NCBI GenBank assembly: GCA_048625195.1
Contig: JBMCRE010000001.1
Span: 5,396 to 69,395 of the forward strand
Direction: 5' to 3'
Length of the DNA: 64,000 nt
DNA from: Nanobdellota archaeon
Lineage (GTDB): Archaea; Nanobdellota; Nanobdellia; Woesearchaeales; UBA583
Part shown: positions 8,164 through 54,509 of the stretch, one piece after another
Layout: each line of letters starts with the position of its first letter
How positions within the stretch are numbered: the stretch's first letter is position 1
Made by a program: the position numbers and the translations under genes
Notes under the pieces: generated by a model
The model's database searches: none
Told to the model about the DNA's origin: nothing
Seen by the model: the letters and a program-made list of their open reading frames with translations, nothing else

Positions 8164-8205
8164 TCTGTTTAGTATTATGTTGTAAATTGTTATATTATTA
8201 AATAT

Positions 8206-8700
8206 TCAAGGATATAAATCAGTTTTGTACGATGTCATTCCTCTTGGCATGGTAAATTTTATAGGAACATTAGTGTTTTTCTTAATATATCTGGTATTTA
8301 TTATTACATAATCATTTTCATTGATTTCATATCCTAGAGGTAATTGAAATTTTAATTCAATTACATCATCTGTATTTATATAGTTTTGTTTGAATTTTTT
8401 TCCTTTGTTGCTATAATTATAAGTGTAAGTATTTTGATCTAGTGTATTACCTGCTTTATAAGTGATAGTTTGAATTTTAGATGTTTGTAATTCAATTATT
8501 ATATCTTCAAAAAAAATTTCTACTGAGTCTTTATCTAATCTTGCCATAATACTAATATTATCTTGGCCTCCATCTATCTTGCCATTTTGAGTACCTACAA
8601 CATATACCCCAAATATTTCAAAATCACTTGAAAATTGATTATTCACTTGTTTTTTCGCATTTAGACCATCTTGTACTAAAATAAAACCAAATTCAATCAT
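8206..8700 (-). CDS. Hypothetical protein; possibly the body of a class III-signal surface protein separated from its signal peptide by a frameshift in a T6 run
   Basis: 164-aa ORF with no motif. Immediately upstream (8783..8706) is a 26-aa peptide MIKSKKAGHDSLILFMVALILSVFIF ending in TAA. One extra T in the TTTTTT run would fuse the two in frame. Confidence 0.4.
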   Translation of the reverse strand: MIEFGFILVQDGLNAKKQVNNQFSSDFEIFGVYVVGTQNGKIDGGQDNISIMARLDKDSVEIFFEDIIIELQTSKIQTITYKAGNTLDQNTYTYNYSNKGKKFKQNYINTDDVIELKFQLPLGYEINENDYVIINTRYIKKNTNVPIKFTMPRGMTSYKTDLYP

Positions 8701-8702
8701 TG

Positions 8703-8783
8703 TTAAAAAATAAAGACTGACAAAATTAAAGCAACCATAAATAGAATTAAACTATCATGACCTGCTTTTTTAGATTTAATCAT
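8703..8783 (-). pseudogene. 26-aa signal-peptide-like mini-ORF (MIKSKKAGHDSLILFMVALILSVFIF*); likely a detached N-terminus of the 8206..8700 gene (frameshift or phase variation)
   Basis: Read directly from the sequence. KKA + hydrophobic stretch is identical in style to the N-termini of the 11226, 8925 and 33259 genes. The stop lies 2 nt before the ATG at 8700. Confidence 0.3.
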
Positions 8784-8924
8784 AATTTTTTTAAAAATTG
8801 TTATTATTAACCTAATTTGTATTAATTAATTAGAAGTTACATGCTTATTATTATCATAAAAAATATAAAAAGTATAAGCTGGTATTTTTAATTAATTAAA
8901 ATTTCAATATTATAAAAATCAAGT

Positions 8925-11210: not shown

Positions 11211-11225
11211 TTTGATTATAATAGA

Positions 11226-11777
11226 TTAGTATTGTTTGAATTTTATATATGCTTTTTTATTATCATTATTAGTTTTTAGGTAAAAAAAATAATTGTTTCT
11301 TCTTATTGATGCATCTAGATTTGAGTATTGCTCTATATCATCATAATATATTAATAATAATTTGTCTTTATTGATTTCATCAGATGAGAATCTTTGATAA
11401 TAATCAACTGGAGATAAATCTTGTGTATCTTGTAAATAAGCATATTTTTGTAGATAATTTTCACGTATTTTATTAACAATTGCTTCACTTTCTTCTGTGT
11501 TAATTGCAATGAGATCCTTAACAAAAAAAGTTTGATTTTCATCTAAATTTAATTCTAACAAGTCCTTTTTCTCTATTTTAGTCATTAAAAATGAATGGAC
11601 AAAGACAGCAGGAAATTGATAATTTAATTCAGGAGCATATTCATTAAACTGTTGTTTGCTATCTAATGATAAGTTATATACAAAATATGAAATAATACCC
11701 ACACAAACAATTGCAATAATTGCAATTATAAATTCAACGTCCATTCCAAAAGCTTTTTTGTTTTTTTTAATTTTCAT
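11226..11777 (-). CDS. Pilin-like protein with class III (prepilin-type) signal peptide (MKIKKNKKA|FGMDVEFIIAIIAIV...)
   Basis: Basic n-region, a K-A cleavage-site-like motif, an acidic residue early in the hydrophobic h-region (DVEF), then a ~150-aa soluble domain. 6 nt downstream of the 572-aa gene. Confidence 0.45.
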   Translation of the reverse strand: MKIKKNKKAFGMDVEFIIAIIAIVCVGIISYFVYNLSLDSKQQFNEYAPELNYQFPAVFVHSFLMTKIEKKDLLELNLDENQTFFVKDLIAINTEESEAIVNKIRENYLQKYAYLQDTQDLSPVDYYQRFSSDEINKDKLLLIYYDDIEQYSNLDASIRRNNYFFYLKTNNDNKKAYIKFKQY

Positions 11778-11783
11778 TTTGGC

Positions 11784-13502
11784 TCAATATTGCATTAATC
11801 CATGTGTTTTTTTATATATAGAATAAAGTTTCCATACATCATCTATATTGTCGATTTTTATTTTTTTATGTTTATGAGCTTTTGAAGATGATATTGGTTG
11901 TTCTTTTCTTTGTGGTAAATTAAATTGAGGCATGAGTGGTTTAAATAATTCATAAAACCCTTTGAAAGGTCCTAAAAACATAGTCATATCTATATCTTCT
12001 TTAGAATATTTGTTTTGATTATTACTGTAAGTAGTATTTTGATTATTGCTGAAGTTAAGGTTTTCTTTGTTATCAAAATAATTAGTATAATATAATAATT
12101 CTTCTTTTATTGTTGTTAGCTCTGAGATAAAATTTTCTAATAAATCTAAATTTTCATCTTTGATTTGTTGTCTGTAACTTGCAATTTCAAATAAGTTCCA
12201 ACAAAAACCTTTAAATTTTATTGAGTTTTTCATCCAAGGTACTTGTTGTATACCTTGTTGAGATTGTATTGCTTCTGTTCTTCTAATTTGATTAAATTCT
12301 AATTGTATACATGAAAATTTTGATAAATCATCTTTGTCTAATAATTTTTGTTGTAAATTTTGAAATTCTTTATGAGTGATTTCTTTCTTGTCGCTTGGAT
12401 AAAATATGTATTTTCCTTGATTTTCTCCTGCAATAAAACCACTTTTTCCTTTGAATTTTCCTTGAAATATTTCTTTCTCTATATATAATCCATATTTTGT
12501 AAATTCTAAGGCATTAAATTTATATCCTCCTCTTTCAAATCCTTTTATTCCTAAAGTTTTAACATACCATATTGAGGAATCAAATAATGAAACTAAGTCT
12601 GGATGCTCTGCTTCAAACCCTCTATGTAAATTATCATACCCAAGGCGTTCAGTTCGTTTTTTTATTTCCATTAATAAAGGTTTCATTATATTGATATGCA
12701 TTTGAATTGTGGAATACATTTGTTTTAGACTTGTAACTTTTATTTTGAATGTTGTTTGAGTATCTTTTATAGCTGAAGGTAGCCAATAATAAAATCTATA
12801 CATCATTCTTGCGGCAGCTTCTTTTGCATCTTTTGTAATATCTATTGAATAAATATTTTCATCGAGTTGTTCTTTTAATGTTTTATTAGTTTGAAATGGG
12901 TCGTCTAGAGATGTTCCAAAAAATAATTGTGGAAGTAATGTAAAATCTAGTCCTTGTTCGGCTGAAGATCTTTGCATTTGCCATAGTCTTCCTCCATCTA
13001 CTTCATTTACCCATTTATCTTTTAGATGCGAGATTGCTTCATTTCTTTCATCTCTTGCTTTTTTTAATTCTTTATTGTCATTATTTGTCCCTTTAGACTT
13101 TAATTCTTGAACAATTTTATCATTTTGAGTAACTTGGTTTATCCATTTATAATAAAAATCTGCCTGTTTAACTTCCTTGAGTAATGGGAATAAATGAACT
13201 TTTATTAGTTGAATTATTTGATTCAAATTTTCTTGAAATGCTCTGATGGTTCCTCCCTTTATTTGTCTAAGCTGCATTCCCAGTTGAGAATTTTCTGTAA
13301 AATGATGGTAATCTTCTAATTTTAACGTTGTATATCCTTTTCCTGTATAATATGCAAAATTAAAAAACCAATAATAACTTTCTGTTATGTCTTCGTTATA
13401 ACCTTCAAATCTGATTTCTTTATCAATAACAGCATTACTTCTAGTGGCATTTTTTATCATTTCATCTGCCTTACTTTGAAAATTTAAAGAATCATCATAC
13501 AT
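11784..13502 (-). CDS. Hypothetical cytoplasmic protein (572 aa), first gene of the surface-protein operon
   Basis: No TM or signal. No Walker motif (GKGYTT is not a P-loop). No recognisable domain. Co-directional and tightly linked with 11226 and 8925. Confidence 0.45.
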   Translation of the reverse strand: MYDDSLNFQSKADEMIKNATRSNAVIDKEIRFEGYNEDITESYYWFFNFAYYTGKGYTTLKLEDYHHFTENSQLGMQLRQIKGGTIRAFQENLNQIIQLIKVHLFPLLKEVKQADFYYKWINQVTQNDKIVQELKSKGTNNDNKELKKARDERNEAISHLKDKWVNEVDGGRLWQMQRSSAEQGLDFTLLPQLFFGTSLDDPFQTNKTLKEQLDENIYSIDITKDAKEAAARMMYRFYYWLPSAIKDTQTTFKIKVTSLKQMYSTIQMHINIMKPLLMEIKKRTERLGYDNLHRGFEAEHPDLVSLFDSSIWYVKTLGIKGFERGGYKFNALEFTKYGLYIEKEIFQGKFKGKSGFIAGENQGKYIFYPSDKKEITHKEFQNLQQKLLDKDDLSKFSCIQLEFNQIRRTEAIQSQQGIQQVPWMKNSIKFKGFCWNLFEIASYRQQIKDENLDLLENFISELTTIKEELLYYTNYFDNKENLNFSNNQNTTYSNNQNKYSKEDIDMTMFLGPFKGFYELFKPLMPQFNLPQRKEQPISSSKAHKHKKIKIDNIDDVWKLYSIYKKTHGLMQY

Positions 13503-15989: not shown

Positions 15990-18900
15990 ATGAATAACAC
16001 TAGAGATGATTTTGCAAAGAAGAATAAGGGAAAACATAAAGAAAAACATCACGTTGAAATAAATAAAAAAGATGATGATTCTTTGAAAGTTAACAAGAAT
16101 ATGAACATTCTTGAAGAGAGTTTAGATATGACTAAAAAACTTAAATTAGAAATCAAAAAAATACATAGTTCTAAAGAACAGTTGAAAAAACATTTAGAAT
16201 CTTTACAAAAAAGAATAGATAAACATGAAATTTCTAAAAATATTAGTAATAAAAATGTTGATAAAGAGGATATTTCTTCAAACGTTTTATCTCATCTAAA
16301 ACAAGAGATTGAAAAGGATTTTGAACCTATTTTTGAAAAATATGATATTAATTTTGCAAAAGAAAATATTTTAAATGAAGTTAATGATACTATTGAATCT
16401 CAATTTCAAAAACTAAAGTCACAAATTGATTCTTCTAATTTTAAAGAAAAAAGATATAATACACAAAAGCTTTCTGATTTAGAAGCTAGAGTATTAGAAT
16501 CATTGAGTGAAAATAAAAAATTAAATGAAGAAATTAAAAAAATTCAAAAATCTGCAAAAAATTTAAAATTATCTCAAGAAATTGAAACAAAAATTTATGA
16601 AGTAGTTTCTAAGTTTAATAAAAAGTATTTTAAGATGCTTGATGCTAATACTATTGAAGTTGAAGAAATCAAACAAGATACTCTAAAAATTGATAAACAA
16701 ATCTCTAAAGTAAAAAAAGTGTTACAAGAAGAGTTTAAAGAAAAAAATACTGACATTGCATCTATACGATCAAAAATTACAAATTTAGAGAAAGACAATG
16801 AATCTATAAAAAAACTACTCGAACGATATGAAAATGATTTATACAATAAATCAAACCAAGAGTTTGTTAAAATAGAGAGTAAAATTCAAAAAGCATTTGA
16901 AAAAAAGTTGACTAATTATAGTGAAAAATTAAATGAGAATTTGTCAAATAAAATATTTGATTCTTTAGAAGAATTAAAAAAATTAAAATTAAATATTGAG
17001 AAACAAACTGATAAAATTAAAACTGATTTTTTAAATCAAAAAAATTCTCAAGAGGATTTTTTAATAACTAAATATAATCAAATTATAGATAATATAGAGT
17101 ATACAAAGAATAAAATTGCAGATGAGAATAAAAAAGAACTTTCATTGATTAGAGATGATGTTTTAAATCGAATAAAAGATGATGTTAAAAATAAAATTGA
17201 AAAACTAATTTTAAAATATAAGGATGAAAAATTAAATTTTGAGAATGAATTAAATTCATATAAAAATGAGCTTGAAAAGACATCTCGAAAATCTATTAAC
17301 GATATTTTAAAGAAAACTCAAGAATTAAAATTTTCAAAACAAGATATTGATAAATTTGTTGATAATATAAAAGAAGAGGTAGTAGAGCAAAATAAGAAAT
17401 TTGAAGAATTCAAAAATAATTTAATGCTTGAAAATAAAGAAAATAAATCTAACTTAATTGATGAAATTTCTAAAAAAGAGGCAAAAAGTAAGGCAGAAAT
17501 TAATGATTTAATTAATAGTACTAAAGAAGAGATTTCTTCACAAATTGTATCTAATAATGAATTTTTAAACAAAATAAATGTTGATAATAAAAAGAATAAA
17601 GAAGAAATATTTGAACAAATAGATTCTAAATTTTTAAAAACAAACGAACAATATAATCAAGAATTTAACTCTCAAATGCTTTTATTTAATAGAAAAATTG
17701 AAGAAAAAGAACAAGAATTTGAAAATAAATTGCAAGAAATTGAAAATCAAGAAAATAAAATTATTGAAGAATTGAATGAATATAAAACCAATCTTGGAGA
17801 ACTAACTAAAAATTATATTGATCAATTAGATAAAGAATTACAAAATTTAAAAAGAACTGAAGCTAATTTCGAAGATGAAGTTCATGCTTATTCAATAAAA
17901 ATTGATGAATTAACTAAAATCAAAAAATTAGAATTAACTGATCATACTCAAGAGTTACAAAAAGAGTTAAAATATATTTTAGAGGAACAAAAAAATAAAT
18001 TTGAAGTTAATGAAAATAATTTTAAAGAAATTTTTAGAGAAAAAATAAATAATTTAAATGATACAATTAATCATAGATTAGATAAAATAGAAAAAACAAT
18101 TTATGATAAAAGTTTAGAAAAAATTGAAAAAAAAATATCTAAAGAACTTGAAATTTTTAAAACCTATGAGCAAACAATTGAATTAAAAGAATCAGAATTA
18201 AGCAAAAAAATTGATTCAATAAATGATGAACATGAACTTATTATGGCTGACATAGAAGTTGCTAAAAATACTTTAAAAGATAAGATAGAAGAAAAACTAA
18301 ATCAAACAGATAAAGAAATAAAAAATAAGTTTTTAGATTATGATTCGGATTTTTCTAATTTTAAACATTTAATTGTTGATGAAATTGAGGACTTTATAAA
18401 AGAGATTGATACTAAATTTATAAACTATGACTCATCATTGCAAAAATTTAAGACAGCTATTATAGATGAAGTTGAAGGTTTTGTTAAACAAATTCATCAA
18501 GATACAACAAGTAAAACTCAAAAAGTAGAAAGTACAATGACAAAGCTTAACTTTACAAATACTCAAATTAATGAGACATTTTCAAAATTGAAAAACTTTG
18601 AAGAAATTTTTAATAATCAAATTGACGGATTAAAATTACAAATAAAAAATAATGAAGAGAAGATAAATCAATTAAATTTAGATACTGCAAAAGAATATTC
18701 AAATAAAAATATTTTGTATGATATTTCAGTTCCAAAAATGTCTAACAATCAGGATGATATTAATAGTGAAATAGAAAAATTAAGACTTGAAATTCAAAAT
18801 AATAAAAAAAAGATTAATAATATCGATTCAAATTATTATGTAGATAATTATCAAAATAGAGGTGATTCGAATTTAGAATCTTTAGGATTTGATATTAAGA

Positions 18901-19250
18901 CTTATGACAAAAAAGAGTCAGAAGAGTTATATAAATATGAGGATAAATTGTCTGATTTACAAAAGAATGTAAATATGCAAATTAATGAATTGAAATTAAT
19001 TGTTGATCAAACTAAAAAACAAGTTGAATCTTTTAGCTATGATAAAATTAATACTTATATACATAAAAACAAGGTGTATGATTTAGTTCATAATATGCAA
19101 GAGTATGAAGAACAGTTGGTAGCATTAATTGAAAATTTACAATCTAAAGGAGCAAGTGACGAATATATTAAAATAGCTTTAACCAATAAAGGACATCCAA
19201 GATTTTATGTTAAATTTGTAATGGAAAATTTATATGAACTTTTTAATTAA
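15990..19250 (+). CDS. Giant coiled-coil protein (1086 aa) with a short globular C-terminus
   Basis: Nearly the entire sequence is K/E/N/L/I heptad-like coiled coil with no Walker motifs (so not SMC/Rad50). The last ~60 aa (..KGHPRFYVKFVMENLYELFN) are non-repetitive. Two antisense track ORFs inside it are artefacts. Confidence 0.6.
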   Translation: MNNTRDDFAKKNKGKHKEKHHVEINKKDDDSLKVNKNMNILEESLDMTKKLKLEIKKIHSSKEQLKKHLESLQKRIDKHEISKNISNKNVDKEDISSNVLSHLKQEIEKDFEPIFEKYDINFAKENILNEVNDTIESQFQKLKSQIDSSNFKEKRYNTQKLSDLEARVLESLSENKKLNEEIKKIQKSAKNLKLSQEIETKIYEVVSKFNKKYFKMLDANTIEVEEIKQDTLKIDKQISKVKKVLQEEFKEKNTDIASIRSKITNLEKDNESIKKLLERYENDLYNKSNQEFVKIESKIQKAFEKKLTNYSEKLNENLSNKIFDSLEELKKLKLNIEKQTDKIKTDFLNQKNSQEDFLITKYNQIIDNIEYTKNKIADENKKELSLIRDDVLNRIKDDVKNKIEKLILKYKDEKLNFENELNSYKNELEKTSRKSINDILKKTQELKFSKQDIDKFVDNIKEEVVEQNKKFEEFKNNLMLENKENKSNLIDEISKKEAKSKAEINDLINSTKEEISSQIVSNNEFLNKINVDNKKNKEEIFEQIDSKFLKTNEQYNQEFNSQMLLFNRKIEEKEQEFENKLQEIENQENKIIEELNEYKTNLGELTKNYIDQLDKELQNLKRTEANFEDEVHAYSIKIDELTKIKKLELTDHTQELQKELKYILEEQKNKFEVNENNFKEIFREKINNLNDTINHRLDKIEKTIYDKSLEKIEKKISKELEIFKTYEQTIELKESELSKKIDSINDEHELIMADIEVAKNTLKDKIEEKLNQTDKEIKNKFLDYDSDFSNFKHLIVDEIEDFIKEIDTKFINYDSSLQKFKTAIIDEVEGFVKQIHQDTTSKTQKVESTMTKLNFTNTQINETFSKLKNFEEIFNNQIDGLKLQIKNNEEKINQLNLDTAKEYSNKNILYDISVPKMSNNQDDINSEIEKLRLEIQNNKKKINNIDSNYYVDNYQNRGDSNLESLGFDIKTYDKKESEELYKYEDKLSDLQKNVNMQINELKLIVDQTKKQVESFSYDKINTYIHKNKVYDLVHNMQEYEEQLVALIENLQSKGASDEYIKIALTNKGHPRFYVKFVMENLYELFN

Positions 19251-29727: not shown

Positions 29728-30333
29728 ATGTATATAGGTAATTCAATAATAGATGGTTTAAAAATCTTAGGTTTCGATAAAGAAACCATAAAAAAGGTAT
29801 CAAGAGAAAAAAGTTTAGAAGAGATATTCCTAAGTACTCTGTTTCTAAATTATATCATAGTTTTAGTAATTTTTATGATAACTGTGATTTTAGGAGGTAA
29901 TATTCAATTAAACAATAAAGATTTAAATATGTCTGTTTTTTTTGGACTTTTAATGATATATCCTTTCGCATATAATGTGATTATATATATGGTATATGGC
30001 TTGTTTGGTTTTATGTCAGAACTATTAAATTCCACAAAAAAAATTAAACCTTTAGTTTCAGTTGGTTTTCATACTGCAATAGTGTATACTTTAGTTTTTT
30101 ATATTATAGGTTTAATTACAACATTTGATTATGTATATGGGTTGTTTTTATTTGCATTGTTTGTAGTATATTTCTTATTGACAATGTTTTTGTCTTTAAT
30201 GACAATCTATAATTTTTCTACTCAACAAGCATTAATGGTTTTAATTATACCACTTTTAATATGTGTAGGAGCATTGTTGTTATTAATAATGTTTGTTGAT
30301 TTGAAAACAATAATTAGTTTTTTTTTAACATAA
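29728..30333 (+). CDS. Polytopic membrane protein (4-5 TM), hypothetical (Yip1-like topology)
   Basis: Soluble N-terminal ~35 aa followed by several hydrophobic helices. Confidence 0.4.
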   Translation: MYIGNSIIDGLKILGFDKETIKKVSREKSLEEIFLSTLFLNYIIVLVIFMITVILGGNIQLNNKDLNMSVFFGLLMIYPFAYNVIIYMVYGLFGFMSELLNSTKKIKPLVSVGFHTAIVYTLVFYIIGLITTFDYVYGLFLFALFVVYFLLTMFLSLMTIYNFSTQQALMVLIIPLLICVGALLLLIMFVDLKTIISFFLT

Positions 30334-31267: not shown

Positions 31268-33265
31268 TTAATTAAATATTGGATCATAACTCTTATCTTT
31301 TTTAGCTAAGTTTTGAACATATTCAAAAAAGTCTAAATAATCATCTTCTTGTATTTGATAAATAGAACCAGGAATAACAAATTGTACTTTGTTTCCTAAA
31401 TTAACATTAGGAGTCCAGTTTTCTTTTTCATAAAATCCTCTTAATTCATTATTTGAGTCCATATAAAAAATACTTAAATTATATTTAACATTGTTTAAAT
31501 CTAAAAATTCTAATTTATCCATAAATCCTTCATCTGTTGGCCAGAATACTGTACTTTCAAAATCATGTTTTTTATTTTCTAAAGTTAAGTAAATAGAACC
31601 ATCTGACTTATCTAATACTCGTTTTCCTGAACCTGTTTCTCTATATTTTATTAAAAAAGTGCTTGCACTAACTTGAAATGTTTTTTTAGGAATTAATTGT
31701 AATTCTATGTCGTTATCTCCATAAAACACTTCTCTTCCCAGCAAACTATCATCAGTATCTATTCTTTTTTCTGTTGTATGATAACCACTTTTTTGAGCAA
31801 TAATTTGTCCTTGAGTACAATAAGGAAAGTTAGTTTGTAATCTTGCATGGGATTGATAATTAGGTTTTTTAATAGTTCCCATATCACATTTTACATTAAT
31901 ACATTTATAACTTATGTTAACATTTGATAAATAATTATCATTAGTGTCTCTTGCAGTTACATATAAAGGATATTTTTTACTTTGATTTGAACAATAATTA
32001 TCTTGATTAAATGTTGAAGGTTCAGGTAATAATATATTTTTTCCTGTATCTTTGGGTTCATTATTTTTAATTTTGACTCTTAGAGGAAATTGAAAAAAGT
32101 ATTGATTTCCATTTTCATTATAATCTGTTAATTTAATAATTAAATCATAATCCATCTCGTATAGATGATGATATACTTGAATACAAGGAATTGGAATCTG
32201 TGTTCCTAAATCTACCTCCATCAACATTGATTTTACTATGTTCCCTGAACTAGGAGTAACTTCAAAGGTTCTAAAAGAATCCCTTTGAAAAAAACCATCT
32301 CTATTATTTACTTGAGTTGATGGTAATAAAACATTTACATCATAATTTTCAAAAGTTTTTTTTGGATTAATTAAAGGAAATGTATAGAAGTTATCATAAT
32401 ATGCTCTACCTTCCTTACTAGTATATTCATCATTAAAAGTTAAATCATATAGCTCTTTTTTTGGATAAGTTCCTATAAATTGCAAATATTTGAAATTATT
32501 ATTATTTAGATTTATAACATTGTTTTTTATTTGAGGAACAGTCCATATCCTTCTTCCACAACTAAATGTCATTCCTTCTGTTGGAACAGAGTCTTGTGAA
32601 GAATAATCATTTGCACTTCTAATTTGATCTAAAGTTAATTCTTCAAATAAATATGTTTGAGATTCTAAATTGTATATCTCAACTGCAAGTTTGTATAAGT
32701 CTCCTAATCTTAAGTTTGGAATATTTATATTAAATTCTGAAACAGTAATAAAATTTTCATCTTTATATTCTTTTATTTTTATAGGATAATTAGTCTCTAT
32801 CATAACATTGTGATCGTTGATTGAGGTATCTACAAAAAAATCACCATCATGTGTTATCATATAAAATTCTTCTAAAGTTTTTAAGTTATGAGTAATACAG
32901 CTTAAGCTTTCTGAGGTTATATATTCTTCTAATTCATTTTCCATAAAAGCAATAGTTGGGATATCACCTCTTTGAGTATCCCAGTTAGGAATTTTAAAAC
33001 CAAAATCTGTATGTGCACGAGGATCTTTATCTATAAATATGGGTATATTAATATAACCACCTTGTGTACCTAATAAGAAAAGCCCCCTTTGAGATGCAGA
33101 CTCTATACAGTCTTCTACAATTTGAGAAACTTCATTTTTCATTTTATCATCTTTAGATTGCCATAATGAAAAATCATCTGTCATAAAAAAGAACATTGTA
33201 ATAATAATTAACACTATTCCTATAATTATAAAAATACTAATTTGGTTTTTTTGATTTTTTAACAT
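31268..33265 (-). CDS. Large (665 aa) N-terminally anchored surface protein, class III-like signal (MLKNQKNQ|ISIFIIIGIVLII...)
   Basis: Single N-terminal TM. The body is Y/N/D/T-rich with several Cys (CIT.., CGRR, CIQV, CSNQ, CINVKC, YCTQG). Overlaps by 7 nt with the upstream 133-aa pilin-like gene. Confidence 0.5.
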   Translation of the reverse strand: MLKNQKNQISIFIIIGIVLIIITMFFFMTDDFSLWQSKDDKMKNEVSQIVEDCIESASQRGLFLLGTQGGYINIPIFIDKDPRAHTDFGFKIPNWDTQRGDIPTIAFMENELEEYITSESLSCITHNLKTLEEFYMITHDGDFFVDTSINDHNVMIETNYPIKIKEYKDENFITVSEFNINIPNLRLGDLYKLAVEIYNLESQTYLFEELTLDQIRSANDYSSQDSVPTEGMTFSCGRRIWTVPQIKNNVINLNNNNFKYLQFIGTYPKKELYDLTFNDEYTSKEGRAYYDNFYTFPLINPKKTFENYDVNVLLPSTQVNNRDGFFQRDSFRTFEVTPSSGNIVKSMLMEVDLGTQIPIPCIQVYHHLYEMDYDLIIKLTDYNENGNQYFFQFPLRVKIKNNEPKDTGKNILLPEPSTFNQDNYCSNQSKKYPLYVTARDTNDNYLSNVNISYKCINVKCDMGTIKKPNYQSHARLQTNFPYCTQGQIIAQKSGYHTTEKRIDTDDSLLGREVFYGDNDIELQLIPKKTFQVSASTFLIKYRETGSGKRVLDKSDGSIYLTLENKKHDFESTVFWPTDEGFMDKLEFLDLNNVKYNLSIFYMDSNNELRGFYEKENWTPNVNLGNKVQFVIPGSIYQIQEDDYLDFFEYVQNLAKKDKSYDPIFN

Positions 33266-33660
33266 TTCATTAACCTCAATGAATTTATTTGTACTGACTT
33301 ACCATAACATAAAAATTTATTACCTTGCAAATCTTGATAATAAGGATATAAGACGAATTTAGGGTTATCATTAACGCTGAAACTCATACCATCTGTTTTA
33401 GTTGCAGGAATACTAAAAAGTTTATTATTCTCGATGTTAGTTTGAAAGCTCATTACACTATTTCCCTTATTTCTTATTTCAATATATACTGAATTATCTC
33501 TTAAACAATTTTTTGTTACTTCAAAATCATAATCTTTACAATTAGGATGATCTTCTTTGAAAAATGTTGCTAATGTACTTAAAATTAAAGTTGTCATTAA
33601 TAAAGATATAATAACAATAATAACAAAATATGTAGCTAAGGCTTTCTTGTTTGTTTTCAT
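33259..33660 (-). CDS. Pilin-like protein with class III-type signal peptide (MKTNKKA|LATYFVIIVIISLLMTTLIL...)
   Basis: Basic n-region + KKA + 25-aa hydrophobic stretch, then a ~100-aa domain with 4 Cys. Confidence 0.45.
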   Translation of the reverse strand: MKTNKKALATYFVIIVIISLLMTTLILSTLATFFKEDHPNCKDYDFEVTKNCLRDNSVYIEIRNKGNSVMSFQTNIENNKLFSIPATKTDGMSFSVNDNPKFVLYPYYQDLQGNKFLCYGKSVQINSLRLMKC

Positions 33661-33825
33661 AAAATTAAAATCAAACTAATATTTTATAAATATATGTATT
33701 TTTCAAGGAGTAATAATATTTTTAATTGTTAAAATTTTAATAGTTTATTTATATTGTATCTTGTTTTTATATACACTATCTTGAAACTACAAAATTTTAT
33801 AAATGTTAAATAATAAAAATAAAAT

Positions 33826-34437
33826 ATGTTTGAAATTGAATTATTAGATTTGATAAATAAAGCCAAGAAGACACAAGATAATTATGAACTTAACAATATT
33901 AAAGATTCTATATCTAATTTAATTTTTCAAAATAATGATGAGTTTAATAAATTTATTTCTAAGAATGATATTGATATGCAAACACAAGAATTTTTAAAAT
34001 CTTGTATAAAAAAAACATATAAAAATGATGAAAATAAATTTAGTGATTCAAAAAGTGATTTAGATAATATTAAAAATTATTATATGAGTTGGTTAGAGCA
34101 TTATAATAAAAATAATAATGTAGTTGATGATAATTGTAATATGGTAATTGATGAAATAATAAATTTTTATGTTTTGAATCGTTTTAATGTCATTTTAAGT
34201 ATCTTGAAAATCGTTGAAACACAAGATTATGAAGCTTTTAAATGGCATTTAAAAAATAAATTGAGATTATATTTTTCCAATCAAATAAGAAACTATATTA
34301 AATCTAGTAATTATCAAAATTTGAATTTTTTTAAAAAAATTAGGAAAAAAAATGCAATACATTATTTAATTTCTGCTATTAGTAAATATGAATTTGATAT
34401 TAAATTAATTAATGAGGTATTAGAAAATGAGTATTGA
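33826..34437 (+). CDS. Hypothetical protein (203 aa), divergent from the pilin-like pair
   Basis: No motif. Overlaps the next gene by 11 nt (operon). Confidence 0.35.
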   Translation: MFEIELLDLINKAKKTQDNYELNNIKDSISNLIFQNNDEFNKFISKNDIDMQTQEFLKSCIKKTYKNDENKFSDSKSDLDNIKNYYMSWLEHYNKNNNVVDDNCNMVIDEIINFYVLNRFNVILSILKIVETQDYEAFKWHLKNKLRLYFSNQIRNYIKSSNYQNLNFFKKIRKKNAIHYLISAISKYEFDIKLINEVLENEY

Positions 34438-36070
34438 AAATAAAATTAGTAGTATGGAAAAAAAATTAAATAAAATTGATGAACATTCTAGTACAAGACC
34501 TGTTAGTAAAAATGAACCTGTTGAGGCAACTAGTGGTTTTTTTAAAGTAATAGAATTAATTTTATATCCTTTTCTTTTGTTTTATATTTTTTTAAAAGTA
34601 GGATTTATAGGAGTAGACTGGATTGGTTCTTTAATTGCTAATAGTTTATCTTTTTTACAAGTTAAAAGTGTTTTTGGTATCTTTTCTGGAGATTTTTATT
34701 TAGGAATGATTGTTTTGGTTATATTATTTTTTATTTATTTCAATATTTTTGCTTTGTTTCCTTTAACATATTTTTTGACTATAAGAAGTGAACCTTTAGA
34801 TAAAATATATAAACAAATAAAAGTTGAGTTAATTATTGTTGTTTGTTTAATGATTCCTTTATTTCTTGCAATGTCTTATGGTTTAGTAATAGGTGATGAT
34901 GGAAGTATGAAAGAAGATACTAGAAAATTTAATATTAATCTTAATGAAAAAATTGAAAATTTAAAAAGTGGTCCTTTATGTTATTTATTTAATAGTCCTA
35001 TTGACTGTATGCAAAACCAAGAAACGACTACTGCTAAAAAAACAACAAGAGCAGAGTATAATGTTTATTTTAAAACTCCAGATTATAACTATGTTCAAAA
35101 TTTAGAGAAATTTAAACAAAGACCATATTATTTAAATTATGAGATTAAAGCAAAGGGAAGTCCTTTATATTTAGATAAAATTGAGTGTTATGCAAATAGG
35201 GTAGATGATAAAAACTTGCTGTATAGAGAATCTTTAGAAAATAGAAAAATTGAGACTAATCAACGTTTACCTGTAAGTGATATAAAATGTGATTTAAATG
35301 AATTAACTATTGATGGTAAAATTGATGAAGACTTTAAATTAATTACATTGTTATATTATGAAATTGAAAGTCAATATACTCAATCTTTTTATGTTTATAA
35401 TGTTGATAAATATATTGAAACTAATTATGGTAACAGTGATGGGTTAAATATAATTGATATTGAAGAAGAAATAAGGAAAAAACTTAATATTGAAAGTCCT
35501 ATTAAATCAAATAATTATTTTGATTTAAAAGTTTATACTTCTCCTAAATTACCTTTTTTTGTTGGAAAAGATTATGATGATAATAATATATATATGAGTT
35601 TTACTTTTACTAAGGATAGTGTTTATGATAAAGTATTAAATAATACTTTAATAAATTACTCTTTACCTAACTTTGTTGAAATGAATTGTGATGATACAAA
35701 TTGCAATGAGAACATTGAAAATCTTATTACATCATATAATGAGGAGTCTAATATAGAGTTAAATCTACTCTTGAAAGATAATATAATTGAACGAGAAGCA
35801 TTATCAGATAAAATTAATTTTAATATTAAAAGTAATTTAGTGAAAAAAAATGTTATTTCTTTAGTAATTAATAATCCTGATTATGTCGAAGAAGAAGAAA
35901 ACAATAAAAGTGATGTTAATCTCAACATTAATGATTTTGAAAATGAAAATATTTCTGATGAAAGCGATAATAACTTAGAAGTAGATGAGAAGGATGACAA
36001 TATTGTTACCAATCAAGAAAATAATAATGATTCACAATACTTTCAAGAAGATGATTTTAGAGGAAGGTGA
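34427..36070 (+). CDS. Membrane protein (4 TM) with large extracytoplasmic domain and acidic C-terminal tail
   Basis: Hydrophobic helices at residues ~40-150, then a Y/N/D-rich domain, then EEEENNKSD...DE-rich tail. Confidence 0.45.
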   Translation: MSIENKISSMEKKLNKIDEHSSTRPVSKNEPVEATSGFFKVIELILYPFLLFYIFLKVGFIGVDWIGSLIANSLSFLQVKSVFGIFSGDFYLGMIVLVILFFIYFNIFALFPLTYFLTIRSEPLDKIYKQIKVELIIVVCLMIPLFLAMSYGLVIGDDGSMKEDTRKFNINLNEKIENLKSGPLCYLFNSPIDCMQNQETTTAKKTTRAEYNVYFKTPDYNYVQNLEKFKQRPYYLNYEIKAKGSPLYLDKIECYANRVDDKNLLYRESLENRKIETNQRLPVSDIKCDLNELTIDGKIDEDFKLITLLYYEIESQYTQSFYVYNVDKYIETNYGNSDGLNIIDIEEEIRKKLNIESPIKSNNYFDLKVYTSPKLPFFVGKDYDDNNIYMSFTFTKDSVYDKVLNNTLINYSLPNFVEMNCDDTNCNENIENLITSYNEESNIELNLLLKDNIIEREALSDKINFNIKSNLVKKNVISLVINNPDYVEEEENNKSDVNLNINDFENENISDESDNNLEVDEKDDNIVTNQENNNDSQYFQEDDFRGR

Positions 36071-45048: not shown

Positions 45049-45801
45049 CTATGGTTGCCAAGGACCAGGTGCAATAACAGTTGTTGGTGTTTCCATTTGA
45101 TTAGTTACAGTACTTGCACCACCGTGTCCACTACTTGAACCACTAGAGATATTTTTCTCAATTATGGTTTTCTTACTTGATGAATCACTTTTACCTGCAC
45201 TGTATCCTAATATTGAAGTCCATAATGCAATAGATGTTGCATCTGATGCTTTTGCAGAAATAAGAGTATCTTCAATACCTTTAATTGCTGCATAGGTTCT
45301 AACTTGAGTTGCTAAAACAGGCATACTATTTTGATATTGTTCCACTAAACTTAAAGCTGCATTATATTTTGATTCCCAAGAGTGATTAGGACTAGTAATA
45401 ACGCTATTGTTTAAGGCTTTAACTGGTTGTCCCATCATTGCATTTGCTTGAACTAATTCAATAACTGTATCTAAACCTTGTTTATAACCTGCGATTTCTT
45501 GAGTTGGTATGTTTTCACTTTCTGGAACTTTATATCCATTTCTGATTAATCCTTCCCAGAAATCTTTAAAGTATTGCATTGCTTTGTTTTCTTTTTCTTT
45601 TGGAACTACTTGATAATCACTTTTTCTTAAATTGTATGCTTGGTTACCAACAATATTTTGTGTATGTTGTGTTTGTGATAACATAGAATCTCTTATTGCT
45701 TTATTTGATGTTTGTATTGTTGCACCTTTATTTCCACATCCTGTACCCATAGATAAAGCTGCAAGTAATAATCCTGTACCTATTAATGTTGATTTTTTCA
45801 T
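45049..45801 (-). CDS. Secreted lipoprotein-like protein, compositionally atypical (A/G/Q/S/T-rich)
   Basis: MKKSTLIGTGLLLAALSMGTGC, a lipobox-like signal with Cys. C-terminal S/G-rich tail. Visibly higher GC than its neighbours. Its ATG overlaps the stop of the upstream gene (ATGA). Confidence 0.5.
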   Translation of the reverse strand: MKKSTLIGTGLLLAALSMGTGCGNKGATIQTSNKAIRDSMLSQTQHTQNIVGNQAYNLRKSDYQVVPKEKENKAMQYFKDFWEGLIRNGYKVPESENIPTQEIAGYKQGLDTVIELVQANAMMGQPVKALNNSVITSPNHSWESKYNAALSLVEQYQNSMPVLATQVRTYAAIKGIEDTLISAKASDATSIALWTSILGYSAGKSDSSSKKTIIEKNISSGSSSGHGGASTVTNQMETPTTVIAPGPWQP

Positions 45802-47063
45802 TCTTTATTCCCTCCTAATTCTTGATTTATAATACTATAAACTTGATTTTCATATTCTGATAAATTTTGGTCTACTCTTTGATTTAATATTGCTTGACCT
45901 GTTTTAATACCATTATCGGTTAAATCATGTTGTGTTCCGTCATATCCTGTAATACTACCTTGTAAAATAGTATTAATTGGTAAAACTATTCTTGCTAATG
46001 CGTTGTCTGCTAAAAAGCCTCTTAATTGATCTCTTTCAATAAAAGCTGAAACATCTACTAAATAACCATTACCTAAGTTTTGATTTTCATAAAAATGTCT
46101 TGCAACAGATTCATGAATTGCATGATATGTTATTGCATCATGTAGTAAAGCTGGTGTTAGTTCTTCTCTTTGATCTTCATATAAAATTTCCTTTCCCAAT
46201 ATATTTTCTAAGTCTGAAAGTTTTATTGCAGAAATTCCTACATTCTCATGTGTCATTCCGTTTAAATTTGCATCATGTATTGCTTTCATATATGAATTAA
46301 CCAACTGAGTTTGTCCTTTACCATTTGGTCTATATAGTCCTGTAGTAATAAAATCTAAAAAAACTGATTCTGGTTTTACTTTATTTGCTTTATTAAATAG
46401 TAATTCATCTTGGTGTATAACTGTAGAGTCATATACTGAAAAATTGTTGTTGTCGTTTTTTTCTATTTTGGATATATGACCATTAAAATTTTGTGGAAAA
46501 TATAAAATATCTCCTTGAAATTGTCTAGTAGATGTTTTTGTAGATTGTTTTGGAATAGTTTGAGGTGTTTTTTTTGATTTTTCTGAAATTTCAGTTTCTA
46601 ATTTGGATTCTTTTGATGTTTCTTGAACTCCTGGTATTACTCCTATTTGATTTGTTTGGGGGTTATAAACTAATCTGTTATTACCTACTACTGGAAAATT
46701 ATTATGCCCTTCTCTAAAAGGATTTTTTGCTGTTGCAAAGTTATTAGATTCTTGTAGAGAGAGTTTTCCATCTTTATTTCCTCTAAATTTATCAATTAAA
46801 TATTCTATATCAATATTTGATTTATATGCGCTATGTGCATCAGAGCCTTTTTTAACAGTAAATGGAATAGTTATTTTATCTTGTATGTTTTCATGAAATA
46901 CTGGTTGTTTTTCAACTACTTGTTGAGTAGTTTTTTGGGGTTCTTGAAAAACTGATGCAATCTCTTTTCCACTTGCTCCTGACCATGCTTGCAATGCAGG
47001 AAAGATTGTTAATGCTCCTGCGAGTCCTAATGTTGCAATTTTTTTTTTTAATTTATTTACCAT
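45798..47063 (-). CDS. Secreted protein (421 aa) with signal peptide; same atypical composition
   Basis: MVNKLKKKIATLGLAGALTIFPALQAWSGAS, a Sec signal with an A-x-S-like cleavage site. No TM afterwards. Q/G/T/V-rich. Translationally coupled to the lipoprotein gene. Confidence 0.5.
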   Translation of the reverse strand: MVNKLKKKIATLGLAGALTIFPALQAWSGASGKEIASVFQEPQKTTQQVVEKQPVFHENIQDKITIPFTVKKGSDAHSAYKSNIDIEYLIDKFRGNKDGKLSLQESNNFATAKNPFREGHNNFPVVGNNRLVYNPQTNQIGVIPGVQETSKESKLETEISEKSKKTPQTIPKQSTKTSTRQFQGDILYFPQNFNGHISKIEKNDNNNFSVYDSTVIHQDELLFNKANKVKPESVFLDFITTGLYRPNGKGQTQLVNSYMKAIHDANLNGMTHENVGISAIKLSDLENILGKEILYEDQREELTPALLHDAITYHAIHESVARHFYENQNLGNGYLVDVSAFIERDQLRGFLADNALARIVLPINTILQGSITGYDGTQHDLTDNGIKTGQAILNQRVDQNLSEYENQVYSIINQELGGNKE

Positions 47064-47132
47064 TTTTTTTAATAATAATATTATTATATCTTTTTATTTA
47101 TAAACTTTTTGCTTGTCTTCACTAATAAATAA

Positions 47133-47978
47133 TTAATTTTTATTTATGATTTCTTTAAAGTCTTTTTCTAATGTCAAAAGCATTGCATATCCTTTATCAT
47201 TAGTAGGTTTAAATGTTGATTTTAATTGATTAACATAACTAGATAATCCTTTTTTATCTGTATTTTTTGAAAAATATGAGTCTACTGCAAGTTCAAATAA
47301 TGTTTGAATATTCATATTGTTAGGAGATGTATCTTCTTTGTGATATGCTGTAATAATTTTATCAAATGCCTCACCTAAAGGCATTGAAGTATTAAATAAC
47401 GATACTTGATTTGTTTTTGTATTATAAGTTAGAGTTTCATTTTTACTGCTAATTAAAACTGGATATTTAATAGGAGTTCCATTATAGTCTTGCATAGATT
47501 TTCTATCTAAAAAATGATTTTGTTTATTTAATCTTGATTCTAAACTGCTTATTGCTTCACTTGTTTTGTTTTCAATATTTTTAATCGAATTTGACAAATT
47601 AGCTTCCAAAGATTCAAATCGTTGAGAATCTAATTGACTTTGTACTACTTGAGGCGCATGAAATTCATTTTGCATATCTTTTATTTGTTTAGATTGAGAG
47701 ATATTTAATAATAAAAAATATCCTATAGATGAATATATTAATACTTCTTTTAAAGGAATGTTAGAAAAATTAATATTAGGAATTTTAACATTAGATATAT
47801 AATCTTTCCATTTAAAAAATGATGGTAATTGAAATTGTGACTTTGAAGTATTTATGTTTTGACTATTAGACTCTTCCTCTTTATAAGTAATTGCTGGAGA
47901 TTCTAATGCAGCTTTTATCTTTCTTAACTTTCTTTGTTCTTTAGTTTCTGGGTTAACTTTAAATATATTTAATTCCAT
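47133..47978 (-). CDS. Membrane-anchored protein (type II topology); paralog of the 48162..48830 C-terminal domain
   Basis: TM VLIYSSIGYFLLLNIS at ~aa 80. The C-terminal region (..NIQTLFELAVDSYFSKNTDKKGLSSYVNQL..GYAMLL) aligns with the C-terminus of the divergent 48162 gene (..NTYTLFQLMALGLDNKNISHKELDLYLSKL..GFDAYQNL). Confidence 0.45.
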   Translation of the reverse strand: MELNIFKVNPETKEQRKLRKIKAALESPAITYKEEESNSQNINTSKSQFQLPSFFKWKDYISNVKIPNINFSNIPLKEVLIYSSIGYFLLLNISQSKQIKDMQNEFHAPQVVQSQLDSQRFESLEANLSNSIKNIENKTSEAISSLESRLNKQNHFLDRKSMQDYNGTPIKYPVLISSKNETLTYNTKTNQVSLFNTSMPLGEAFDKIITAYHKEDTSPNNMNIQTLFELAVDSYFSKNTDKKGLSSYVNQLKSTFKPTNDKGYAMLLTLEKDFKEIINKN

Positions 47979-48161: not shown

Positions 48162-48830
48162 ATGGGAATTATTAATGAAAACACTGTGAATAAATATAAT
48201 AATGCATTTAATGGAAATTCTAAAGCACAATTAATCAAAAAAGGTTTAATATATGGATTAAGTCTACTTGTTTTAAGTGGAGGAATGTATGGTATTAATA
48301 AAAATAAAAATAATATATCATCAAATTCTAGTCAAGTTGAATTCCTTAAACAACGACAAAATGTACACAAACACAATTTAGAATCTCTAATTGATGATAT
48401 TCAAACTAATGTTGATAATATAGTAGAACAATCTTCTCAACCTCAAAGTTATCTGGAGAAATATCTTGTAGACAATAAAAACAGGTCTAATTATAACTTT
48501 GACATATTTATAGATGATGACTCTCAAAAATTATTAATGACTTATGATAAAAATAATAATCTTATTAAAATAGGTGAAAAAAGCATAAAATTAGATGAAT
48601 TTTTAAATCTTTCATTAGATAATTATTTAAAAAGTGCTCAAAATCAAACTCCTGGAGAGAAAAATACATATACTTTATTTCAATTAATGGCTTTAGGATT
48701 GGATAATAAAAATATCTCTCATAAAGAATTAGATCTATATTTATCAAAACTAGATCAAATATATAAAAAAAACAGCGATAATGGTTTTGATGCTTATCAA
48801 AATTTAAAATTTCAATTAAATAATTTATAA
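48162..48830 (+). CDS. Membrane-anchored protein (N-terminal TM), paralog of 47133..47978
   Basis: TM LIYGLSLLVLSGGMYGI. Shared C-terminal domain as described for the 47133..47978 gene. Divergently transcribed from its paralog. Confidence 0.45.
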   Translation: MGIINENTVNKYNNAFNGNSKAQLIKKGLIYGLSLLVLSGGMYGINKNKNNISSNSSQVEFLKQRQNVHKHNLESLIDDIQTNVDNIVEQSSQPQSYLEKYLVDNKNRSNYNFDIFIDDDSQKLLMTYDKNNNLIKIGEKSIKLDEFLNLSLDNYLKSAQNQTPGEKNTYTLFQLMALGLDNKNISHKELDLYLSKLDQIYKKNSDNGFDAYQNLKFQLNNL

Positions 48831-53477: not shown

Positions 53478-54509
53478 TTATATGTTTATAATGATTAAGT
53501 TGTCAATCTCTTTTGCGAATTTGAATAGTCCTTTTGGACAGTTTTCAATAAAAAATATTTTTGGTTTTTGAGATGAGGTGTAATATTTTATGATTTGGTT
53601 TTGATTTGGTTTTTTATAAAAGAAATAACAATCTATCTCGATTAATATTTTTGAGAGTTGTAAATTTGTTTTATAATAAATACCCTTATCATCTTTTTGC
53701 TTACTCTCTATTGTTAAATAATTTTCTTTTAAAAAATTCTCAATAAAATTTTCTTTTTGGTTTTTTTGCATTTTAATGTTTAATTCTTTCTGATTTTTTG
53801 AATTTTGATATGTATTATTATTGTTTTGATTGTTATTAGTTGAATTAAAGTTGTTTGATGTGTTATAATTTGAATTATTATTTAATTGATTAGATTGATT
53901 GCTTAGTTCTTGCTTGATATTTGAATTAAATGTTTGCTGATTGGATTGATTATTGTTGTGATTATTGTTATAGTTTTGATTGTTATTATTATTAGATTGT
54001 TGTTGGGTAGTTGTTGATTTATTGATTTGTTGTTGGTTTTTGTTTTTTTGTGTATTAGATTTGGGATTTAATGCTTCTAATATTTGTGACTTTGTATCAT
54101 CTAAATTTCTTTGATACCAAACCCAAAATTTGAAATTTTTATTATTATTGGTAAGTTCTAATTGGTATGCAAAATCTTTTATATTTCCTATTGCTAATCG
54201 TTCCTGAATCGTCAAACTATTGTCATTAACTATTTGTTTTTCTTTTAGTTTATGAAAGATTTCTTTTTCATTTTTAGAAAGATGTTTCTCGCCTAACTCT
54301 ATTAAAACTGAGGATTGTTTTGGATCATAATAATATGGTGTAGAAGATAATTTTAAATAAGTTATCTTAATTAATTTCTCTTTTGCAAGTTCTGATAGAG
54401 CAGCCGATGCTATTGTTGTTGTTGTATCAAAAACTTGTGCAACAGATGAAGGAATAACAGCTTTTTCTTGTTTTATATATCTTAAAAGATTATCTTTAGT
54501 TAGTATCAT
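53478..54509 (-). CDS. Tandem winged-helix protein with long N/Q-rich low-complexity linker (TFE/TFIIE-alpha-like wH?)
   Basis: Two wH-like units ending in aromatic wings (..ITYLKLSSTPYYYDP.. and ..NFKFWVWYQRNLDD..), reminiscent of the TFE ..GWIYYYW.. wing. Then ~120 aa of NNNQNN repeats, then a C-terminal domain. Confidence 0.35.
   Translation of the reverse strand: MILTKDNLLRYIKQEKAVIPSSVAQVFDTTTTIASAALSELAKEKLIKITYLKLSSTPYYYDPKQSSVLIELGEKHLSKNEKEIFHKLKEKQIVNDNSLTIQERLAIGNIKDFAYQLELTNNNKNFKFWVWYQRNLDDTKSQILEALNPKSNTQKNKNQQQINKSTTTQQQSNNNNNQNYNNNHNNNQSNQQTFNSNIKQELSNQSNQLNNNSNYNTSNNFNSTNNNQNNNNTYQNSKNQKELNIKMQKNQKENFIENFLKENYLTIESKQKDDKGIYYKTNLQLSKILIEIDCYFFYKKPNQNQIIKYYTSSQKPKIFFIENCPKGLFKFAKEIDNLIIINI

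Follow-up and report, generated by a model that had tools for sequence, protein, structure and literature searches.

Locus B of a Nanobdellota contig: a coupled pair of candidate class III-signal surface proteins, the larger from a DPANN-wide uncharacterised family

The 64,000-nucleotide stretch of contig JBMCRE010000001.1 analysed here, referred to below as the window, comes from a Nanobdellota archaeon, has a guanine-plus-cytosine (GC) content of about 22% and carries archaeal housekeeping genes, among them those for the ribosomal proteins S8e and L15e, RLI, Elp3 and HisRS. Its lineage is DPANN (Woesearchaeota/Nanoarchaeota), and the source archaeon is tiny and probably symbiotic. Most DPANN archaea remain uncultured; for many of them a life attached to host cells is assumed, and the means by which they attach are largely unknown. 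For one clade of nanoarchaeal pilus ATPases, the cognate pilins were not identifiable (Makarova et al. 2016, PMC4858521). We describe a locus of this window, locus B, at which the gene for a small protein of 133 amino acids (aa) overlaps the gene for a 665-aa protein, and from which a second overlapping pair diverges. The locus comprises the following open reading frames (ORFs) and spacer:

31268..33265, minus strand: ORF for the 665-aa protein, a candidate class III-signal surface protein of a DPANN-wide uncharacterised family
33259..33660, minus strand: ORF for the 133-aa protein, a small candidate class III-signal protein
33661..33825, no strand: spacer of 165 bp between the divergent gene pairs, AT-rich, with presumed promoters
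33826..34437, plus strand: ORF for the 203-aa protein, a soluble protein
34427..36070, plus strand: ORF for the 547-aa protein, a membrane protein

The four ORFs and their two overlaps, of 7 nucleotides (nt; ATGTTAA) between the 133-aa and 665-aa genes and of 11 nt between the 203-aa and 547-aa genes, had been reported in a preliminary description of the locus and agree exactly with the ORF list and the sequence. Each of the four has homologs elsewhere and is therefore a real gene, not a chance ORF. The same description called the large protein "giant", a word for which 665 aa is too small. In the 165-bp spacer, a sigma-70-type promoter scan performed no better than expected from shuffled sequence, the sigma-70 model not being applicable to archaea, and the combined sigma-70 promoter and terminator scan was uninformative for an archaeon of 22% GC.

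The 665-aa protein opens with two segments that are central to its interpretation:

33245..33265, minus strand: basic leader MLKNQKN of the 665-aa protein (codons 1-7), with a predicted prepilin-type peptidase cut before Q8
33164..33244, minus strand: hydrophobic N-terminal helix QISIFIIIGIVLIIITMFFFMTDDFSL of the 665-aa protein (codons 8-34), a membrane or filament-core segment (hydropathy segment 4-35; helix 5-34 in the structural model)

We aligned 224 members of its family (hereafter the 665 family), taking as anchor in each the first Gln with a hydrophobic 13-mer behind it. The consensus K-[K/R]-[G/A/S]-Q-[IVL]-[T/S]-[IVL]-F-[IV]-[IV]-[IVL]-[G/A/S] fits 209 of them, and the remaining 15 lack their N-terminus, mostly because the gene was called too short. 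Leaders have a median length of 7 residues, and the family is hydrophobic from +2 to +9 and further. Residues at the positions around the predicted cut are distributed as follows:

Position -3: K in 148/209
Position -2: K/R in 186/209
Position -1: G/A/S in 203/209
Position +1: Q in 209/209 (by construction)
Position +2: I/V/L in 196/209
Position +3: T/S in 198/209
Position +5: F in 199/209
Position +9: G/A/S in 207/209

Because this position-specific conservation brackets a small -1 residue, it argues for a peptidase site rather than a plain membrane anchor, and the N-terminus of the 665 family is, judged by its sequence, a canonical archaeal class III signal. The Gln at +1 resembles the QxSxE-type class III signals of Methanococcus EppA substrates (PF04021). 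In the 133-aa protein, the leader MKTNKKA is followed by a predicted cut before L8 and a hydrophobic helix that extends to about residue 35; its family shows K-K-[A/S/G], then [ILV]-x-[S/T]-[Y/H] and then the hydrophobic helix in 11/11 aligned sequences. Both families thus show the marks of a class III signal: a short charged leader with K/R at -2, a small -1 residue and a hydrophobic helix. Leaders of KKA type also occur at a second place in the window, locus A, and the four leaders of the two loci, NKKA/L (133 aa), NKKA/F (183 aa), NKKA/I (761 aa) and SKKA/G (an archaellin-like fragment), fit a single peptidase specificity. The preliminary description had regarded the N-termini at both loci as pilin-like, and with their Lys-rich leader, small -1 residue and hydrophobic helix they do go beyond generic transmembrane helices.

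An AlphaFold model of the 665-aa protein, built from a 45-sequence alignment, reached a mean predicted local distance difference test (pLDDT) score of 85 over its full length. From N- to C-terminus it consists of the hydrophobic helix 5-34, a second helix at 38-67, an alpha/beta region that ends near residue 405, a linker of low confidence, beta-sandwiches at about 430-635 and a C-terminal helix 640-656. Its two globular parts are encoded as follows:

32051..33160, minus strand: N-domain (codons 36-405), a compact 370-aa alpha/beta domain that defines the family; modelled separately, pLDDT 86 and predicted template modelling score (pTM) 0.85
31361..31978, minus strand: beta-sandwich region (codons 430-635), immunoglobulin-like (Ig-like)/CnaB/carboxypeptidase-regulatory-like, with four invariant Cys at its start and then the C-terminal helix

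The single transmembrane segment is the N-terminal one, and the C-terminus is hydrophilic. In the model, helix 5-34 continues as helix 38-67 into the globular domain and is followed by a four-stranded antiparallel sheet, a geometry that would be compatible with a pilin-like head. Conserved motifs of the N-domain are QGGY, KIPNWD, RLGDLY, NNNNFKYL and CIQxYHHLYxLDYDL, together with four invariant Cys. Over the whole family alignment there are eight invariant Cys, and the remaining invariant positions are mostly Gly, Pro, Trp and aromatics; this composition suggests a structural or binding protein stabilised by disulfides, not an obvious enzyme. A Foldseek search with the N-domain returned nothing below E 0.01 in the PDB and nothing below E 0.01 in the viral database BFVD. 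With the full model, Foldseek found only generic tandem Ig-like matches in the PDB (Bacillus anthracis TIE, SlaB, Gram-positive pilins and teneurin; E 1e-6 to 1e-4), with low TM-scores of at most about 0.15 (0.13-0.18 in the comparison with SlaB). The match of SlaB was to the beta-sandwich part of the model (E 4.9e-6).

A word-indexed search retrieved 92 homologs of the 665-aa protein, nearly all of 620-700 aa, from metagenome-assembled genomes of Woesearchaeota/Nanoarchaeia; Woesearchaeal relatives are 40-57% identical to it and a more distant set about 24%. The family extends much further, as a profile of the N-domain (residues 36-405, transmembrane segment excluded) matched 5,625 representative clusters (50% identity) at E<=1e-3 among 1.84 billion representatives, 2,873 of them at E<=1e-10 and 986 at E<=1e-30. 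Among the 150 matches listed, the N-domain almost always starts near residue 40 of a protein of 610-700 aa. A Pfam scan of 45 members gave zero matches to any model, an NCBIfam scan gave no match for the family, and neither did a profile search against PDB sequences. In the resources searched, the 665 family is undescribed: its architecture of signal, new domain and Ig-like part, its fixed small partner and its paralog cluster are undocumented. Large class III-signal proteins and "dark" pilin-like genes of DPANN archaea are already known as a kind (PMC4858521, PMC6393860).

The small partner is a constant companion among Woesearchaeal relatives: the small gene lies upstream of the large one and is tightly coupled to it in all 12 of the 12 loci in which upstream DNA is present. 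Nine distinct GTDB loci were found by tblastn, and the CP060218.1 gene was also retrieved as L001 and L002; among the loci with a small gene, OZ242164.1 (L003/L015) was recognised by gene order and alignment and L020 by gene order, and L013 holds only the C-terminal part of the small gene, at a contig edge. The 7-nt overlap recurs in six places (L005, L007, L010, L014, L015 and L020); elsewhere the genes overlap by 13 nt (L008) or are separated by 0-2 nt (L006, L009 and L011) or, with the ORF called from its first start codon, by 58 nt (L012). The small proteins themselves have diverged widely, with 18-28% identity to the 133-aa protein of the window, and share four Cys in the 11-sequence alignment (C41, C52, C118 and C133). 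Behind its helix, the 133-aa protein probably forms a Cys-containing beta-sandwich domain of about 95 aa. Pfam searches with 11 members of the 133 family produced no significant or consistent match, only weak and scattered ones, several of them Ig-like. Since the two genes are coupled and co-conserved, their products would be expected to act together.

The pair closes a four-gene cluster in 8 of the 11 GTDB loci and in L020. This cluster encodes, in order, a Sec-signal protein of about 260 aa, a class III protein of 770-1005 aa (about 900 aa), a protein of about 132 aa and one of about 670 aa. The ~900-aa protein begins K-x-Q-I-S/T-I-F like the 665 family, and hhalign aligned the two families with a probability of 99.3% (E 1.7e-20) over about 200 columns that cover the signal and the first part of the N-domain. 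By this profile comparison it is a true paralog of the 665 family, encoded two genes upstream in the relatives. A hidden Markov model search of the window found neither the ~260-aa nor the ~900-aa family, so that only the last two genes of the cluster are kept there, and CP060218.1 likewise lacks the first two at this site. The relatives' pair sits among further large class III proteins, with an Arch_flagellin-domain gene directly downstream in L014.

Upstream of the four-gene cluster lie genes for further large proteins whose class III start is of PilA type, KKGIGPVIA.. in L014 (2798..5539) and NKGISPVVA.. in L020 (2280..5834). The L014 protein matches Pfam DUF7483 (E 5e-90), and both regions resemble islands of large pilin-like proteins.

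More distant DPANN relatives have a different partner. There, the family gene (about 615 aa) overlaps by 4 nt the gene for a giant Sec-signal protein of 1,772-3,064 aa, at the following places:

L004, 7871..15184: giant-protein locus
L019, 9858..18945: giant-protein locus
L017, 2953..12905: giant-protein locus
JGI 3300072015 contig: giant-protein locus

The giant partner carries an SLT lytic transglycosylase domain in L019 and shows a weak VanY match in another of these loci. At three of these places, a soluble ORF of about 45 aa (MKKYLL..EDE..LW..F) that looks like a small ribbon-helix-helix-type regulator lies just before the family gene; the exception is L017, where a 294-aa membrane protein with several transmembrane segments is encoded upstream.

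Taken at the level of sequence, the best supported statement is that both proteins of the pair would be substrates of a prepilin-type peptidase, would lie outside the cell held by their helix and would act together. We regard the 133-aa and 665-aa proteins as a translationally coupled class III-signal surface pair and prefer to see in them a minor or tip complex of a type IV pilus-like filament. We give this reading about an even chance, an estimate that takes in the more general claim of a class III-signal surface pair. Eight invariant Cys and Ig-like beta-sandwiches that resemble the shaft domains of adhesins and pilins, and SlaB, suggest that the parts behind the helix are extracellular; the conserved residues after the predicted cut, the clustering with class III proteins and precedent favour a filament. 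Large class III-signal proteins outside the major pilin families are generally taken as minor pilins or adhesins (PMC4858521).

Our data establish the genes with their coupling and synteny, the signal motif throughout the family, the arrangement of domains and the absence of homology to locus A. That the leaders are cut and that the proteins lie outside the cell, bind each other, enter a filament and serve adhesion is inferred, and we propose the following hypothetical sequence of steps, in which (i) the 133-aa and 665-aa proteins would each be made with a short Lys-rich leader; (ii) an archaeal prepilin peptidase of PibD/EppA type would cut before Q8 of the 665-aa protein and before L8 of the 133-aa protein; (iii) the remaining hydrophobic helix would sit in the membrane or, once extracted, in the helical core of a type IV pilus-like filament; (iv) the disulfide-stabilised outer parts would point outwards, the 133-aa protein contributing a small beta-domain and the 665-aa protein the 370-aa alpha/beta domain and the Ig-like beta-sandwiches; (v) the two proteins would form an approximately 1:1, low-abundance minor or tip subunit complex; and (vi) this complex would mediate contact with a host cell or surface.

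Several observations weigh against this proposal. The window copy of the 665-aa protein has Asn at -1 (codon 7, 33245..33247), the sole Asn at this position among the 209 members, which might impair cleavage. Whole locus B proteins gave no significant match to PF04021 Class_IIIsignal, PF07790 Pilin_N or PF01917 Arch_flagellin, the best scores of N-terminal fragments against curated pilin and class III models were E 9 (Class_IIIsignal) and E 0.13 (Tad), and the Foldseek search with the N-domain retrieved no type IV pilin. Pilins and adhesins evolve fast, and the conservation of the 665 family across Woesearchaeal relatives, at the identities given above, is unusual for them. The 133-aa partner is limited to the Woesearchaeal clade, its place being taken in distant relatives by the ~45-aa soluble ORF. 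No type IV pilus ATPase, TadC/FlaJ platform or A24 peptidase was found among the window ORFs scanned with Pfam and NCBIfam (a few small ORFs were unscanned), nor was any of the three found among the annotated genes and ORFs that flank the family in about 15 other places, where the neighbours are housekeeping genes.

Among known systems, the Epd/EppA-type class III proteins (PF04021, QxSxExxxL), such as the Epd pilins of Methanococcus maripaludis, share with the pair the basic leader, the small -1 residue, Gln at +1, Ser/Thr at +3 and the hydrophobic helix, and their genes, too, lie away from the ATPase locus with several pilin-like genes clustered. An Epd-type "system 1" has been reported in some DPANN archaea (bioRxiv 10.64898/2026.04.22.720090). 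However, the 665 family has Phe instead of Glu at +5, scores only E 9 with the Pfam model, has a mature part of about 630 aa (the new alpha/beta domain plus the Ig-like region) rather than a pilin of about 60-150 aa, and has no Epd machinery visible nearby. The large "adhesin or minor pilin" proteins predicted in archaeal type IV pilus loci (PMC4858521) and the bacterial GspK/PilY1 tip complexes are comparable in that a large prepilin-type protein with conserved Cys and presumed low copy number is accompanied by smaller pilin-like partners. In contrast to these, the 665 family has no DUF2341 or PilY-type domain and no arCOG homology detectable with the tools used, lies outside a pilus locus and is far more conserved than typical minor pilins. 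The substrate-binding proteins of the Sulfolobus bindosome, which are anchored in the membrane or a pseudopilus, also combine a prepilin-type signal with an N-terminal helix instead of a Sec signal and are encoded away from their assembly machinery, but locus B has neither a solute-binding-protein fold nor an ABC transporter as neighbour.

Membrane anchoring after cleavage of a class III signal has been proposed for those bindosome proteins. It leads to the strongest alternative, which we consider possible but clearly less probable than a filament complex: the signal would be cut, and the proteins would stay in the membrane through their N-terminal helix as part of the DPANN envelope, for example as a stalk or anchor for adjacent large or giant secreted proteins. 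A widespread and well conserved family of uniform length, with its 5,625 clusters, suits a core component better than a variable adhesin, and its housekeeping neighbourhoods with no pilus machinery nearby fit such a role. So do the 4-nt overlap with the giant Sec-signal protein gene in distant relatives, which recalls slaA-slaB, and the place of SlaB among the best matches to the beta-sandwich part. SlaB is the S-layer stalk of Sulfolobales, co-transcribed with SlaA, and shares with the 665 family the tandem beta-sandwiches and, in distant relatives, the coupling to a gene for a giant secreted protein. However, of the Sec signal, beta-sandwiches, coiled coil and C-terminal transmembrane segment of a SlaB-type anchor, only a likeness in the beta-sandwiches was found; the 665 family is anchored N-terminally by a prepilin-type signal and has the additional 370-aa domain. 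Moreover, the strictly kept cleavage-site motif and first ~9 residues behind the predicted cut suggest helix-helix packing as in filaments, and the window has neither a giant partner nor the ~900-aa paralog adjacent to the pair. A DPANN-specific secreted family next to S-layer-like proteins, which may or may not be the same one, has been described (cls.004306, NEQ255; PMC6393860). Compared by description only, the 665 family resembles it in being DPANN-restricted, secreted, uncharacterised, beside large surface proteins and in a housekeeping context, and the two may overlap.

More speculative, and in our view rather unlikely as it stands, is the idea that the ~650-aa family is the DPANN-wide core of an undescribed host-contact apparatus, in which the prepilin-processed new alpha/beta fold would cap or anchor a filament and dock large secreted partners, thereby connecting assembly of pilus type physically with the host envelope as a target of attack or attachment. 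The docked partners would be the ~900-aa paralog in Woesearchaeales and elsewhere the giant proteins of 1.8-3 kaa with peptidoglycan-cleaving SLT or VanY domains.

We see little room for an uncleaved signal anchor (type II), that is, a membrane-tethered extracellular protein with a small membrane partner and no prepilin processing. The absence of significant matches to Pfam pilin and class III models, the lack of peptidase or pilus genes nearby and the atypical Asn at -1 in the window copy would suit it, but about 200 of 209 divergent members keep K/R at -2, G/A/S at -1, an invariant Q at +1, T/S at +3 and F at +5, which a plain anchor does not need.

The last alternative concerns locus A, which holds another small and another large gene:

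11226..11777, minus strand: small gene of locus A, 183 aa, with a KKA-type class III-like N-terminus
8925..11210, minus strand: large gene of locus A, 761 aa, with a KKA-type class III-like N-terminus

The preliminary description saw in loci A (183+761) and B (133+665) two paralogous small-plus-large cassettes of one modular surface system, perhaps alternative adhesins. The small-then-large order at 11226/8925 is real, with 15 nt between the two genes, and the claim of the same arrangement as at locus B holds for gene order and N-terminal signal type but not for homology. BLASTP found no similarity between the 665-aa and 761-aa proteins (E 0.59 or worse) or between the 133-aa and 183-aa proteins (E 0.34 or worse). 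Profile comparison with hhalign gave a probability of 0.2% for the 665 family against the single 761-aa sequence, of 11% against the 761 family, over 30 columns of the signal and transmembrane segment only, and of 2.9% for the 133 family against the 183 family, over 16 columns of the KNKKA leader. At the sequence level we therefore reject paralogy of the two loci, because only signal/transmembrane or leader segments align. Alike gene order, strand logic and KKA-type leaders, and an archaellin-like gene at the end of locus A, speak for the cassettes; against them stand this lack of similarity past the signal and transmembrane segment, the ~900-aa paralog, which matches the 665 family but reaches only 20% with the 761 family (transmembrane segment only), the mere 3 homologs of the 761-aa protein in 5.8 billion proteins compared with thousands of clusters for the 665 family, and the fact that the two cassettes are unlinked in other genomes, so that we hold this model to be highly improbable. 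The result corrects a tempting but wrong reading of two look-alike gene pairs as duplicated cassettes.

Locus A is a four-gene operon (window 8206..13502, minus strand) made up of the genes for a soluble 572-aa protein and for the 183-aa and 761-aa proteins and of an archaellin-like gene. The order 572-183-761 is kept in one related contig (L016, 5606..10810), with identities of 56%, 41% and 39%. The archaellin/pilin-like gene (window 8206..8783, minus strand) is split into a 26-codon ORF with a class III-type leader (MIKSKKAGHDSLILFMVALILSVFIF, then a stop codon) and a 164-aa ORF. The short ORF ends in a run of six T at about 8703-8708, where one extra T would join it in frame to the 164-aa ORF; the split may reflect an error of assembly, a pseudogene or a site prone to slippage. 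When the gene is reconstructed with the junction placed slightly differently, it matches Arch_flagellin of Pfam, starting at position 8 of the profile (E 3e-6, 28 bits, cut-off 29.5). In L014, one ORF (8005..9060) directly 3' of the gene for the 670-aa family member has both a Yip1 membrane domain and an Arch_flagellin domain, and its C-terminal part is 35% identical to the 164-aa ORF of the window. A Yip1-domain gene (201 aa) lies in the window at 29728..30333 (plus strand), about 1 kb from the 665-aa gene on the opposite strand. All eight locus A and locus B proteins, together with two neighbours, were searched against Pfam and NCBIfam; nothing significant came up apart from the sub-threshold match to Arch_flagellin (164-aa ORF) and the match to Yip1 (201-aa ORF). 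About 500 bp from locus A, a 212-aa protein with five transmembrane segments (window 7083..7721, plus strand) matches the NCBIfam pacearchaeosortase model NF033505 (E 1.3e-15, 57.9 bits, cut-off 80) and also an exosortase/archaeosortase signature; none of the locus A and locus B proteins showed a C-terminal sorting signal.

Within locus B, the divergent 203-aa and 547-aa genes form a unit of their own. As previously described, the 547-aa protein is a membrane protein with an acidic tail, whose gene overlaps the 203-aa gene and diverges from the pilin-like pair, which ORFs and hydropathy confirm. It has an N-terminal tail of about 35 aa, three to four predicted transmembrane segments (residues 36-157) and a large Cys-containing C-terminal region before the acidic tail. 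Among 5.8 billion proteins, only itself and one homolog of 53% identity were found, and the 203-aa protein has only a sub-threshold SeqA_C match. In L018, a 199-aa homolog of the 203-aa protein (57% identity) again overlaps a 515-aa gene homologous to that of the 547-aa protein, and the divergent neighbour there is a lipoprotein-like rather than a pilin-like gene. By tblastn, neither protein occurs in any locus with a pilin-like pair. Because the sole recurrence lacks a pilin-like neighbour, we reject a pilus-locus role, and judged from these gene contexts the pair is an independent, lineage-specific orphan unit, coupled and outside the pilin-like module.

Elsewhere, the window carries several bacterial-type genes, probably acquired from bacteria:

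54778..56871, plus strand; 58678..60219, minus strand; 62007..63878, minus strand: bacterial-type genes, namely NAD-dependent DNA ligase (LigA with BRCT), a GGDEF plus HD-domain protein and DnaK/Hsp70

The window also encodes a Lys/Glu/Asn-rich protein of 1,086 aa (15990..19250, plus strand), which is apparently coiled-coil and has no transmembrane segment and no Pfam match, and a run of ORFs of 250, 421, 281, 343 and 222 aa without Pfam or NCBIfam match (45049..47978 and 53478..54509, minus strand; 48162..48830, plus strand).

In summary, our analysis brings out a family of thousands of clusters with a uniform architecture and a near-invariant prepilin-type signal, for which there is no Pfam or NCBIfam model and whose main domain has no match in the PDB or among viral structures. 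As fixed partners it has a small protein of class III type, a paralog, or else giant proteins that are secreted and bear cell-wall hydrolase domains. The pair encoded by the 133-aa and 665-aa genes is thus a concrete, testable candidate for a conserved surface structure of DPANN archaea.

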